Source: Escherichia coli
GTDB taxonomy: Bacteria; Pseudomonadota; Gammaproteobacteria; Enterobacterales; Enterobacteriaceae
Strand: one strand, 5' to 3'
DNA: 64,000 bases
NCBI RefSeq assembly: GCF_029227855.1
Contig: NZ_CP074356.1
A program made the position numbers and the translations under genes. The notes beneath the pieces are model-generated. The model was not told where the DNA came from. It was given only the letters and a program-made list of their open reading frames with translations, and ran no database searches. Positions within the stretch are counted from its first letter, which is position 1. Every line of letters starts with the position of its first letter. Below are positions 46,016 to 50,015 of this stretch, piece after piece.

Positions 46016-47104
46016 GTGAGTATGGCTAACGCCTGGCTCAGATTATGGCATGACATGCCAAATGACCCTAAGTGGCGAACAATTGCCAGGGTGTCAGGGC
46101 AGCCAATTGCAACAGTGATGGCAGTGTATATCCACCTCCTGGTGAGCGCGTCACGAAATGTCACGCGAGGTCACATTGATGTCACGACAGAAGATTTGGC
46201 AAGTGCGCTCGACGTGACAGAAGAGGTAATTGATTCAATTTTGCAGACGATGCAGGGGCGGGTACTTGATGGTGATTTAATCACTGGATGGGAAAAACGC
46301 CAGGTGCTTAAAGAGGACAACGGCAATATTTCGCAAACCGCAAAATCTCCTGCAGAGCGCAAGAGGGCGCAGCGAGAGAGGGAAAGAAAGCGGGAACAAA
46401 ATGGCGATTGTCACGGCGCGTCACGAAATGTCACGCACATGTCACGACGAGTCACGACAGATAAAGATACAGATAAAGATACAGATAAAGATACAGATCA
46501 AGAAGATCAAAACACTATGGTCCATGGCGTAAAAAACGCCACGAACCAGGCAGGGGATGTTCAGACCGTCAATCTTGGTCAGCCAGCAGGCACGACACCG
46601 GAAGCCGATTCAGCGTATGCGCTGAAAGCCGATTCGGGCGCTGTGCAGCAGGTGATGACCGCAAGGCCGGAGCAATCACACCAACTGCAGCAGCCCGAAG
46701 CCGATTCCGCCATTCAGCGGGAAGCCGATCGGGTAGTCCCGGAAAACACCGGGCAGTCTGTGGGACGAGTGGATTATCCGGATGTGTTCGAACAGGTCTG
46801 GCGGGAGTACCCGTTGCGTGCCGGAGCAAACCCGAAGAAATCCGCTTTCAGTGCCTGGAAGGCCAGATTACGCGAGGGGGTGCCACCAGAGGCCATGCTG
46901 GATGGCGTGAGGCGTTACGCAAGATACTTGGCGGCTACCGGGAAAACGGGAACGGAATTTGTTCAGCGAGCGACGACGTTTTTTGGACCGGACCGGAATT
47001 TTGAGAACCCCTGGTTGCTCCCGGTAAGCGGCACGAACAACCAGCGTTGTGTGAATCATATTTCTGAACCGGATAACGAAATTCCGCCGGGCTTCAGGGG
47101 GTAA
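46016..47104 (+). CDS. Putative phage replication initiation protein (O-like) containing internal iterons
   Basis: 362-aa ORF with N-terminal HTH-like region, low-complexity middle (DKDTDKDTDKDTD) and two clusters of GTCACG direct repeats inside the coding sequence. Confidence 0.55.
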   Translation: MSMANAWLRLWHDMPNDPKWRTIARVSGQPIATVMAVYIHLLVSASRNVTRGHIDVTTEDLASALDVTEEVIDSILQTMQGRVLDGDLITGWEKRQVLKEDNGNISQTAKSPAERKRAQRERERKREQNGDCHGASRNVTHMSRRVTTDKDTDKDTDKDTDQEDQNTMVHGVKNATNQAGDVQTVNLGQPAGTTPEADSAYALKADSGAVQQVMTARPEQSHQLQQPEADSAIQREADRVVPENTGQSVGRVDYPDVFEQVWREYPLRAGANPKKSAFSAWKARLREGVPPEAMLDGVRRYARYLAATGKTGTEFVQRATTFFGPDRNFENPWLLPVSGTNNQRCVNHISEPDNEIPPGFRG

Positions 47105-47144
47105 GTGTTAATTTCTGGTCATGAGGTAATTTTCAGGAGGGCTT

Positions 47145-47567
47145 GTGGCAAAAGTTTTTACACAAGAAGAGCGGGAAAAAATTAAAGGGCAGGTTGTTGA
47201 ACTCGTACGCCAGAGTGGGCGCGAGACGTTACGACAACTGGAAACTAAAACTGGGGCAACAAGATATCTGATGAGCGTTCTGGCCAGAGAGCTGGTTGCC
47301 AGTGGCGATGTATACAACTCTGGTTACGGGTTATTCCCGTCTGAACAGGCGCGTAAGGACTGGCAAAATGCCCGTAAAAAGCTCTCAAGGGCAAAGCCGA
47401 AGAAACCATCTGCGGTTGATCCGGACCTAATCTGGTCATTACCAGACGGAGAAATACGCCGCTACGACAGGCGCCTGAATATAATCTGTCGCGAGTGCCG
47501 GAAGAGCGAAGCTATGCAGCGTGTACTGGCTTTCTATCAGGGTAATTTTCAGGAGGCGGTACTGTGA
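47145..47567 (+). CDS. Hypothetical prophage protein (140 aa)
   Basis: Track ORF; good spacing after replication gene; no family recognised. Confidence 0.5.
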   Translation: MAKVFTQEEREKIKGQVVELVRQSGRETLRQLETKTGATRYLMSVLARELVASGDVYNSGYGLFPSEQARKDWQNARKKLSRAKPKKPSAVDPDLIWSLPDGEIRRYDRRLNIICRECRKSEAMQRVLAFYQGNFQEAVL

Positions 47568-48074
47568 GTGAAATTAGCTATCAGGCTTCAATTGCCGCTG
47601 GCATTCGCATCAAAGGAGAGGAGCATGGAAATAAAACCAGAGGATTAGTTAAGCAATATCGTTTTATTTCCGATAAAAGAGGATGACCCTCGTAATCAGG
47701 TTAATTTTCTTTATGAGCCATCGGAAAGACCATATTGCCATCACGCTTCTGTCCGGGTTGACGAAAAAGAGCGTCAGGTCCGCTGTAAAATCTGCGGTGC
47801 AGTTGTGGAGCCATTTGACTGGATGCTCTCTGTGGCGAAAAGAGAAACCAGACTGGCAGATGATGTAAGGCTCTTGCGCCAGGAGGAACGGGAAAGGCGA
47901 AAAAATATAGAAAAGCTAATTCAGATTGAGCGTAACGGGAAAGCGCGGATACGCAGGGTGACAAAATCCAAAACTGAATAATTAAATTTAGCACTGTTAA
48001 AAATTTAATCCTTAACCGGAGGGATTTCTGCACCCTCAGAACAGCAGGAGGCCACCCGAAAGGGCGGTAGTGAA

Positions 48075-48257
48075 ATGCGAAAGTTCAAAATAATTATTGA
48101 AACGGGAATGGCTGGTGGAGATTTCGAGGATGAATTCGAAGTGGATGCTGATGCGACGCCTGATGAAATACATGACGAAGCAAAAGATATTTTCTTTAAC
48201 TACTGCAATTACTCATATCACGAAATAAAAGACGAAGAGGAAGAGCAAAATGGCTGA
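48075..48257 (+). CDS. Small acidic hypothetical prophage protein (60 aa)
   Basis: Track ORF, highly acidic; followed by two further coupled small ORFs (about 48250-48425 and 48423-48533). Confidence 0.4.
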   Translation: MRKFKIIIETGMAGGDFEDEFEVDADATPDEIHDEAKDIFFNYCNYSYHEIKDEEEEQNG

Positions 48258-49401
48258 TTTTGGTTCAACTAAATACAACGTCAGTTTTGAAAAATGGCAT
48301 GAACTGTTAATGGACTATGCAGAGTTACGTGGTGGCAGTGCTGCTGATGCTGAAGCATGGCGTGATGATTATGAAGCAGGAAAAAATCCGGTCGAAGCAT
48401 ATTGTGATGAGTGGGGCGATGAATGAGCGAGATTAATTATCAGGAAGGGTATGAAACGGCGGGGCAAGCAAAACCAGTGGCATGGCGATATCGCTACGTG
48501 AAAAAAGGCGTTACGGACTTTCAGGAGAAGTAGTGGTCTGTTGACTGGAAATATGTACCGAAAAAAGAGGATTGTAACGACAGGCCGAACTATCAAATTC
48601 AGGCCTTATTCACTGCCTCACCAGCCCTGGTTACATCAGAAGAACTGGTTAAAGCTGTGCACTTTTATGAACAACTAAAACGCGAAAATCCACCAACATC
48701 CGGCAACTAGATTAATGGGTTAACTATGTCGGTTAAACGACCAGCCAACTGAAAAAGCGGAAACCTGATTATAGGTTGCCAGATAAGGCAATAAGCTACC
48801 TGGCGCGGAACGGACTGATAAGTATGGGGAATGTTTTACGATGAACCTTTAGACTAAAGAGTTTGTAACGCTATGTAAGTGATTTTTTCTAGTTTAGATA
48901 TTTATATGTCCGGCCAAATTGAGGTGTGTTTAAATGTAATTGCACATTGATTGTAGGAGGAATAATGAAAAACGCATTGCAGTTTTTGTTTGTTGCGTTC
49001 TGGTTGTTCGTATCATGTATGCCCATCATCTTCACAGCAAGGTATATGGAAAAAGTTGATGTTTTGATATTAATATTTGGATATATAAATGCCCTTTTTT
49101 TAGGGGTGTTCATGGCGGTCATGTGCATTGAATACTGGCGGTAAATACAGCGAACTCCATTGGTTTAGTTGGATATTTATTGTGCTGGACAAAAACGGTT
49201 TGCGGGGAAATCTTAGTTAAGTAGAATGACTGCGGGTGCTTGAGGCTATCTGCCTCGGGCATGAACACCAACGGCAGATAGAGAAAAGCCCCAGGTAACA
49301 TTACGCGTCCTGCAAGACGTTTAACATTAATCTGAGGCCATATCTATGCGACACATAGAGATTAGCCTCTTACGGACCGAAAGGTCAAGGAGAAGCAGGC
49401 T

Positions 49402-49557
49402 ATGAAGCAGCAAAAGGCGATGTTAATCGCCCTGATCGTCATCTGTTTAACCGTCATAGTGACGGCACTGGTAACGAGGAAAGACCTCTGCGAGGTACGA
49501 ATCCGAACCGGCCAGACGGAGGTCGCTGTCTTCACAGTTTACGAACCTGAGGAGTAA
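49402..49557 (+). CDS. hokD: Hok/Gef-family type I toxin (51 aa)
   Basis: Hand-translated MKQQKAMLIALIVICLTVIVTALVTRKDLCEVRIRTGQTEVAVFTVYEPEE; short upstream ORF ends at the hok ATG; terminator hairpin at about 49626-49650. Confidence 0.85.
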   Translation: MKQQKAMLIALIVICLTVIVTALVTRKDLCEVRIRTGQTEVAVFTVYEPEE

Positions 49558-50015
49558 GAGACCCGGCGAGGGAGAAATCCCTCGCCACCTCTGATGTGTC
49601 AGGCATCCTCAATGCACCCGCACTTAACCCGCTTCGGCGGGTTTATTTTATCTGTGAATATTTTTATAAAAATAATGCCCACACACAGCATAAAACAAAA
49701 AGTATCACAGATAAAAAAGGAGCGTAATGTGCAGATTTGTTGTTTTCCATATTTACTCACTTTAACATAATCAATATTGATATGGTTGTTGTTTCGGTGG
49801 TTTCAAACGAGATGTTATGATGATCTGGTAAAATTGCATAACATTAAAATTTAATTTATCTAATCGCTTTTAATAATAAGCGTTGTGTTTATCCCAACAA
49901 TCTGTTGTTTGACTTTTATTCCATTAATGTAGGGGCTTTACACTGGAACCAGTTTATTTATACTTTATACGCCAGCCTGAACAACTGGCACCTGCTGCGC
50001 CAGCAGAGACAACCG

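Follow-up and report, generated by a model that had tools for sequence, protein, structure and literature searches.

A stretch of 64,000 nucleotides (nt) from Escherichia coli, here called the window and providing all coordinates below, carries at 47564-48535 a block of small open reading frames (ORFs). The block is real but ordinary: it is a partly decayed lambdoid accessory cassette. We consider it probable, with good confidence, that it is a mosaic of non-essential accessory genes, in the proposed order Ead/Ea22-like gene, zinc-ribbon protein, DUF7167 protein, 58-amino-acid (58-aa) acidic protein and Ea22-type gene. In the window it is located in the rightward early operon, directly 3′ of the O-like replication and DUF977 genes. 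Of its five units three are dead, namely the Ead/Ea22-like gene, collapsed to a stub, the zinc-ribbon gene, in which GAG has become TAG, and the lesioned Ea22-type gene, and only the DUF7167/58-aa pair is left intact.

A preliminary description of this DNA had reported a run of tightly packed plus-strand ORFs downstream of a replication module, with overlapping stop and start codons and some acidic members, and in all these respects it was correct. The O-like replication gene is followed by the DUF977/LygF gene and then by the run, the TGA stop of DUF977 overlapping the GTG of ORF A at 47564 (GTGA); further overlaps are found at 48250 (ATGGCTGA) and 48423 (ATGA), and the 60-aa and 58-aa proteins are the acidic members (Table 1). 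All units of the cassette are on the plus strand and successive genes overlap or abut the stops of their neighbors. With this arrangement, and with Shine-Dalgarno (SD) sequences that can be read inside the upstream genes, they look like the members of a translationally coupled operon. The preliminary description had named conservation of the frames in related prophages as a check to be made. In related prophages and phages the zinc-ribbon, DUF7167 and 58-aa frames proved to be conserved, and its interpretation holds in part; the ORFs of 40 and 36 aa are remnants of Ead/Ea22-type genes rather than independent genes.

Table 1. Features of the cassette and of the gene preceding it (pI, isoelectric point)
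Feature	Position	Strand	Basis
Shine-Dalgarno sequence AGGAGG, 7 nt 5′ of GTG 47564	47551-47556	+	read from sequence
ORF A, 40 codons, collapsed Ead/Ea22-like gene	47564-47686	+	allele lengths, shared gene ends, no synonymous variants
Mosaic junction GCTGGCATTCGCATCAAAGGAGAGGAGC	47597-47624	+	3′ terminus common to various upstream genes
Gene of the zinc-ribbon plus long-helix protein (phrog_1621), 118 codons, inactivated at codon 8	47625-47981	+	phrog_1621 profile, purifying selection
Amber TAG replacing GAG (Glu8)	47646-47648	+	alignment with phage vB_EcoS-640R1
Initiation region of the DUF7167 gene	48046-48077	+	SD AGGAGG 48046-48051, hairpin, 7-nt spacer, ATG 48075
DUF7167 family protein, 60 aa, pI 4.06, intact	48075-48257	+	Pfam PF23768; phrog_1997; RefSeq name
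58-aa acidic protein, pI 4.17, intact	48250-48426	+	phrog_519, C-terminal part
ORF, 36 aa, first segment of gene E	48423-48533	+	ATGA overlap with the 58-aa ORF
Gene E, pseudogene of a 171-codon gene with Ea22-type N-terminus MSEINYQ	48423-48844	+	translation; alignment with intact 171-aa alleles
DUF977/LygF (Ren-like exclusion) gene	47145-47567	+	Pfam PF06163, E = 1.6e-29; phrog_142; RefSeq annotation of an identical locus

The zinc-ribbon gene and its amber allele

One frame of the run (…YCHHASVRVDEKERQVRCKICGAVVEPFDWM…), encoding a small protein with cysteine and histidine residues, had been described as lacking an obvious ATG start. As far as the open frame goes this is true, since it extends from 47649 to 47981 and its first in-frame ATG, GTG or TTG is the GTG at 47805. 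The gene, however, does have a start: the protein seemed start-less because an amber codon interrupts, at codon 8, a gene that begins with ATG at 47625. This ATG, with AAAGGAGAGGAGC just 5′ of it, is in frame and opens the reading MEIKPED, TAG and then LSNIVLFP...YCHH...CKIC...; its SD sequence, AAGGAG within 47597-47624, was graded good. In phage vB_EcoS-640R1 a single base is different, codon 8 is GAG and a 118-codon gene runs from the same ATG; the record of the phage annotates a longer ORF of 137 codons from an upstream GTG.

Among 83 copies, taken from viral contigs and reference records, codon 8 is GAG in 79 and TAG in 4, and one of the four TAG copies is a chromosome identical to the window. 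When a 78-mer centered on codon 8 was matched exactly to complete E. coli genomes, about 98 records had TAG versus about 1173 with GAG, counts in which the band of at least 99% may take in a few shorter perfect matches. The missing start is an inherited amber mutation, a minority allele, and neither a sequencing error nor a case of unusual initiation.

With Glu8 restored, residues 1-117 align with positions 1-120 of the 134 positions of phrog_1621 (E = 1.3e-54), the alignment starting at the Met encoded at 47625. As a functional member of this family the copy in the window fails, its frame being interrupted at codon 8. Farther on, the first canonical start in this frame is codon 61 (the GTG mentioned above), past all four zinc ligands. 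Across related loci codon position 3 accounts for 30 of the 40 variable sites in the frame, and 31 changes are synonymous versus 9 non-synonymous, a pattern which indicates that the frame is under purifying selection. In the C-terminal helix the TAG allele also deviates within the NAKAR segment, with Gly where the family consensus has Ala. RefSeq lists the 107-aa remainder of the gene as WP_225104553.1 with an ATC start at 47658, which is best read as an annotation work-around.

A collapsed Ead/Ea22-like gene and the junction at its end

The exchange of G for T at 47646 not only converts GAG of the zinc-ribbon gene to TAG, it also converts the TGA stop of ORF A to TTA, and it is because of the removal of this stop that ORF A has 40 rather than 27 codons. 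The common form of 27 codons, (M)SEISYQASI[A/T]AGIRIKGEEHGNKTRG with the stop TGA at 47645-47647, occurs 53 times among 82 related loci; the length of 40 codons is restricted to the TAG allele. Where codon 8 is the common GAG, the zinc-ribbon gene overlaps ORF A by 23 nt (47625-47647).

In ORF A an N-terminal MSEISYQASI is fused to AAGIRIKGEEHGNKTRG as C-terminal tail. Other phages have genes of 153, 207 and 239 codons that begin with MSEI[ND]YQ or MREVNYE and end with ...AGIRIKGEEHGNKTRG, and the 153-aa and 239-aa proteins match the Pfam family Ead_Ea22 (PF13935; E values of 8e-34 and 3.5e-11). Because both ends are shared with these proteins, ORF A is an Ead/Ea22-like gene of which only the first approximately 10 and the last 17 codons have been retained. 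This remnant has no Pfam match and does not contain the Ead_Ea22 domain of approximately 139 profile positions. All 12 variants in its frame are non-synonymous or nonsense, i.e. the frame is without coding constraint. The overlap with the zinc-ribbon gene contains five variants, of which one is the TAG/GAG site itself; of the four ordinary substitutions, three are synonymous in the zinc-ribbon frame and the other, I17V, is conservative. The AGGAGG preceding ORF A is the original ribosome-binding site of the Ead/Ea22-like gene; in other upstream contexts, too, this SD sequence and start accompany the MSEI.YQ 5′ end. The 40-residue phrog_37408 and WP_001345625.1 appear to describe a by-product of the amber allele.

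Sixteen different upstream contexts were found 5′ of the zinc-ribbon ATG, and in all but one of them identity begins at the mosaic junction, the exception being locus L064, which has only the last approximately 20 nt of the junction in common. Genes of 153, 195 and 239 aa are among those upstream whose products share the tail encoded there. Recombination thus seems to take place at short ends that different genes have in common.

Within the junction, positions 47603-47620 (ATTCGCATCAAAGGAGAG) encode IRIKGE, in which K-G-E comes from AAAGGAGAG, the SD sequence of the next gene. At locus L016 a different gene ends with ...NIRIKGE just before the following ATG. All Ea22 proteins have been described to end in a K/R-G-E tripeptide for which there was no explanation (PMC7093339). 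Rather than being a feature of the proteins, the K-G-E motif is probably a ribosome-binding site and a joint for recombination.

The pseudogene at the 3′ end

The 36-codon ORF is the head of gene E, which in the window carries an in-frame TAG (48531-48533), a 90-bp in-frame deletion (junction 48696/48697), a second in-frame TAG (48708-48710) and a frame-shifting 4-bp deletion (junction 48741/48742). RefSeq labels the gene 'frameshifted; internal stop'. Intact alleles of 171 aa are present at 9 loci, and most related prophages have damaged alleles. With Ea22-type proteins the intact allele shares only the N-terminus MSEINYQ; it matches neither Ead_Ea22 (PF13935) nor any other Pfam family at E ≤ 0.1, and its match to phrog_660 is weak.

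The intact DUF7167/58-aa pair

The 60-aa protein is a member of PF23768, with 52.6 bits versus a cutoff of 24.4 and residues 2-53 on profile positions 1-60, and 18 of the 27 variable sites in its frame are at codon position 3. A model calculated with AlphaFold2 (AF2; predicted local distance difference test, pLDDT, 78) shows a β-hairpin and a helix; a fold search with this model in the PDB gave nothing below E = 0.1, and in the literature no papers on DUF7167 were found.

The SD sequence of the DUF7167 gene, AGGAGG, is strong and lies 23 nt 5′ of the ATG. Between the two there is a 6-bp GNRA hairpin, CCACCC-GAAA-GGGCGG (48052-48067), with an A·C mismatch in the window. In relatives pairing is kept via G-U wobbles and one compensatory change of G-C to A-U, the window representing the unpaired A·C intermediate. 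Although 97.9% of the alignment cells are paired, 129 of 500 shuffles were as good, and the covariation is statistically weak. If formed, the putative hairpin would bring the spacing between SD sequence and ATG to approximately 7 nt.

The start of the 58-aa ORF overlaps the DUF7167 stop by 8 nt. Homologues of approximately 58 aa are found in E. coli, the Enterobacter cloacae complex and Salmonella prophages, and half of the variable sites (12 of 24) are at codon position 3. The two genes occur together in 54 of 55 cases, and the pair is located 3′ of the zinc-ribbon gene in 54 of 73 analysable loci. For the two acidic proteins we consider it most likely, with low confidence, that they bind or inhibit another protein; their target would be a protein of the host or of a rival phage.

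The zinc-ribbon protein family

The family is characterized by CxH, 13 residues, CxxC, PFD and a long helix ending in EERNxKARIR. Of the four zinc ligands, C38 and H40 are nearly invariant and C54 and C57 invariant. Close homologues, all annotated as hypothetical, are distributed across Enterobacterales, and the family comprises at least the 1393 clusters at 50% identity that a profile search (E ≤ 1e-3) yielded. There is no Pfam or NCBIfam model of the family, and a Pfam search with ten distant relatives gave only sub-threshold matches to zinc ribbons or coiled coils; the metagenome contigs that carry the distant relatives are too short to inform on genomic context.

In the AF2 model (pLDDT 72) the N-terminus is disordered and is followed by a small ribbon of two β-hairpins and by a helix of 55 residues. 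Nothing below E = 0.1 was found with this model in fold searches of the PDB and BFVD, and in a search of PDB sequences the best chain had E = 0.54, which is not significant. Based on the AF2 model we propose, with low confidence, that the protein most likely acts as a small, dimeric adaptor of the zinc-ribbon kind, which has been lost in this lineage; the CHCC ribbon would be followed by the basic 55-residue helix, and this helix would bind a protein of the host or nucleic acid.

Mobility of the cassette

The Shiga toxin (Stx) phage ArgO145 carries, one after the other, Ead/Ea22-like gp18, zinc-ribbon gp17, gp16, DUF7167 gp15, 58-aa gp14 and Ead/Ea22-like gp13. This cassette lies between exo/ssb and int, which is the exo-xis region of the leftward operon. 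A Yersinia prophage has a 48%-identical zinc-ribbon homologue between ninH and Q, a Salmonella prophage has a distant zinc-ribbon gene after the exo/SSB genes, and in Enterobacter phage Tyrion the zinc-ribbon gene overlaps the end of an Ead/Ea22-like gene. Since zinc-ribbon genes or the cassette are found in exo-xis, nin and early-left settings, the block is a typical movable accessory module.

Phages ArgO145 (locus L083, 2773-5385), a Stx lambdoid phage, and Tyrion (locus L092, 662-2896), an epsilon15-like phage, share the order of a 3′-phosphoadenosine-5′-phosphosulfate (PAPS)-reductase-like gene, zero to two small ORFs, an Ead/Ea22-like gene and an overlapping zinc-ribbon gene. Their zinc-ribbon proteins are 31% identical, and a functional link is possible. 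Because both in Stx phages and in Tyrion the zinc-ribbon gene begins within the 3′ part of an Ea22-like gene, which it overlaps, and lies 3′ of the PAPS-reductase-like gene, we have considered that the zinc-ribbon/EERNxKARIR protein might cooperate with Ead/Ea22-like proteins and be a missing partner in the poorly understood Ea22 pro-lysogenic pathway. We regard this as speculative and improbable. In the window the gene is present only as a knocked-out copy.

Expression and alternative explanations

After induction or infection the cassette would be transcribed as part of a PR read-through transcript, and its genes would be translated by hand-over of ribosomes, i.e. by coupling via the stop/start overlaps. 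On the plus strand no promoter-like or terminator-like consensus was found from 47100 to 49626, where the terminator after hokD begins, and no Rfam RNA was found in 47564-48535.

Several points weigh against a partly decayed cassette. In the 58-aa frame the synonymous excess is modest, with 9 synonymous versus 15 non-synonymous changes. RefSeq annotates both the 40-aa ORF and the ATC-started 107-aa remainder, so that weak re-initiation may occur. Expression and translational coupling are themselves inferred from the arrangement of the genes. Finally, the cassette proteins searched matched nothing in NCBIfam, in PADLOC or among the sequences of the PDB, and none of the fold searches gave a significant match.

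The alternative with most in its favor is the one raised by the preliminary description, that all the small ORFs encode functional, translationally coupled early proteins for host takeover or anti-defence. The conservation of three frames and the location of the cassette in accessory regions (exo-xis, nin), which are the usual place of such genes, are in line with it. So is the acidity of two of the proteins (pI approximately 4.1); some DNA-mimic anti-restriction proteins, too, are typically very acidic. We nevertheless consider this explanation unlikely, though it keeps some weight, for the 40-aa and 36-aa ORFs are remnants and the zinc-ribbon gene is cut in the window. Moreover, no likeness in sequence or fold to known defence proteins or to anti-defence proteins (DNA mimics such as Ocr and ArdA, sponges, Acr proteins) was detected: none of the 5027 PADLOC models matched the zinc-ribbon, DUF7167, 58-aa or 171-aa protein, and there was no significant PDB match in sequence or fold for the zinc-ribbon protein and none in fold for the DUF7167 protein. 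A look at the literature turned up no experiment on any member. On a role in host takeover or anti-defence as such the analysis takes no side, the points in its favor being the acidity of two proteins and their location among phage accessory genes.

Much less probable still is that the TAG at codon 8 is functional, either via suppressor read-through or as a one-base switch between overlapping products, which would be the 118-aa zinc-ribbon protein plus a 27-aa peptide in one state and a 40-aa peptide without the zinc-ribbon protein in the other. One base change does alter both frames, the allele persists in the approximately 98 complete genomes, from varied hosts, and all three nonsense codons of the region are TAG. 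Three out of three is, however, only a coincidence of about one in nine, the 40-aa frame is without coding constraint, the TAG allele deviates from the family consensus also in its NAKAR segment, and the neighboring TAG-bearing gene E has in addition a frameshift and a deletion, i.e. is decaying. Programmed read-through or suppression was rejected: among the 7 tRNAs of the window there is no suppressor with a CUA anticodon, and TAG is a minority allele that is not conserved.

The least probable explanation of all takes the small ORFs for frames that happen to be open in spacer or other non-coding DNA. In its favor, ORFs of 36-60 codons do arise by chance, the 40-aa frame behaves as non-coding and the antisense strand contains a 110-codon shadow ORF (47701-48033). 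It is refuted for three of the five ORFs by the third-position bias of the zinc-ribbon, DUF7167 and 58-aa frames and by homologues across Enterobacterales, which for the zinc-ribbon protein include the many clusters mentioned above; Pfam and PHROG membership also speaks against it.

The prophage and its neighboring genes

The 1.7 kb from 47100 to 48800 are 100% identical with many E. coli chromosomes. In one of them, NZ_AP022261, the upstream neighbors are genes for a recE-like exonuclease, ydfD, dicB, ydfC/B/A, a dicA-like repressor, a second helix-turn-helix protein, a YdaT-family protein, the 362-aa O-like replication protein and the DUF977 protein; hokD, DUF968, rusA and the antiterminator gene Q are downstream. 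In the window there are also an integrase gene adjoining tRNA-Ser, and lysis and head genes, with ORFs of terminase and portal size. Genes for tRNA-Met (CAT) and tRNA-Arg (TCT) lie at 52694-52951, just 3′ of the Q gene, which is also their place in Stx-type lambdoid phages. Because of the integrase at tRNA-Ser, the tRNAs after Q, the lysis, terminase and portal ORFs and the neighbors of the dic-ydf type, the host element is a Rac/Qin-like lambdoid prophage. Rac of E. coli K-12 has none of the cassette genes; there ydaW is directly followed by rzpR.

The O-like replication gene (46016-47104) contains at 46420-46530 a 12-bp repeat encoding (DKDT)n, of which the window (TDKDTDKDTDKDTDQ) has one copy more than phage 640R1 (TDKDTDKDTDQ). 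This variation in copy number inside the gene of a replication initiator is possibly iteron-like.

Downstream of the cassette, the gap between the pseudogene and the hok/sok locus (48845-49230) is unannotated. It contains a 72-codon plus-strand ORF (48926-49144) with two strongly hydrophobic segments (MKNALQFLFVAFWLFVSCMPIIF..., ...VLILIFGYINALFLGVFMAVMCI), which is identical in phage 640R1 and is without RefSeq annotation. The hok/sok-type toxin-antitoxin locus (49234-49557) is complete, with sok RNA at 49234-49404 (Rfam RF01794, 100.8 bits) and hokD at 49402-49557, and is followed by a terminator-like hairpin at 49626-49643. Further downstream, NZ_AP022261 has the IS21-family insertion element ISEc62 inside the DUF968 gene (locus L001, 9886-12010); the window is without ISEc62 at the corresponding position, 50980-50985, and its DUF968 ORF is intact with 349 codons.

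Significance

For biology at large these findings are of little import, the result being mainly an annotation correction: WP_225104553.1, WP_001345625.1 and phrog_37408 all appear to result from a single nonsense mutation that a zinc-ribbon gene has suffered. The findings also show lambdoid accessory cassettes moving between the PL and PR operons, apparently by recombination at short shared gene ends that double as ribosome-binding sites. The large zinc-ribbon family and the acidic two-gene pair are candidates for screens of prophage accessory genes.

Comparison with known systems

With the TFIIB ribbon the model of the zinc-ribbon protein shares a four-ligand ribbon and two β-hairpins. The match to PF08271 (Zn_Ribbon_TF), the best in Pfam, reaches 21.6 bits and thus falls short of the curated cutoff, 29; the protein is not a member. 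In Foldseek the N-terminal ribbon of TFIIB was likewise the best resemblance, with an E of 0.57 over 27 columns, which is not significant. TFIIB lacks the 55-residue helix and the conserved EERNxKARIR motif.

The lambda Orf73/TraR/DksA family consists of small zinc-finger proteins that bind RNA polymerase. The likeness to the zinc-ribbon protein is one of kind only, a small phage early protein with a zinc element beside a long helix, and the order of these elements differs; the DksA/TraR zinc finger was not among the Pfam matches of the zinc-ribbon protein at E ≤ 1. Orf73 is encoded in the exo-xis region (PMC9239242).

The lambdoid nin region, from ninB to ninH, resembles the cassette of the window in its position between the replication genes and rusA/Q, in its stop/start overlaps of 4 to 8 nt and in its dispensable small genes. 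None of the ORFs of the cassette matches a Nin family of Pfam.

In lambda and Stx phages the exo-xis (ea) region, and in P22-like phages the ea region (ea22, ea8.5, orf60a, orf61, orf63, orf73), likewise consist of small, non-essential and tightly packed early genes bounded by Ead/Ea22-like genes. The exo-xis genes have been described as modulators of the lysis-lysogeny decision (PMC7093339, PMC3824215); the papers on exo-xis and Ea22 do not cover the three conserved proteins of the cassette, which by Pfam show no homology to the characterized exo-xis proteins of lambda. Whereas the exo-xis region is in the PL operon, the cassette of the window is in the rightward PR operon, 3′ of the replication genes, and it differs from exo-xis cassettes also in that its flanking Ea22-type genes are a stub and a pseudogene.

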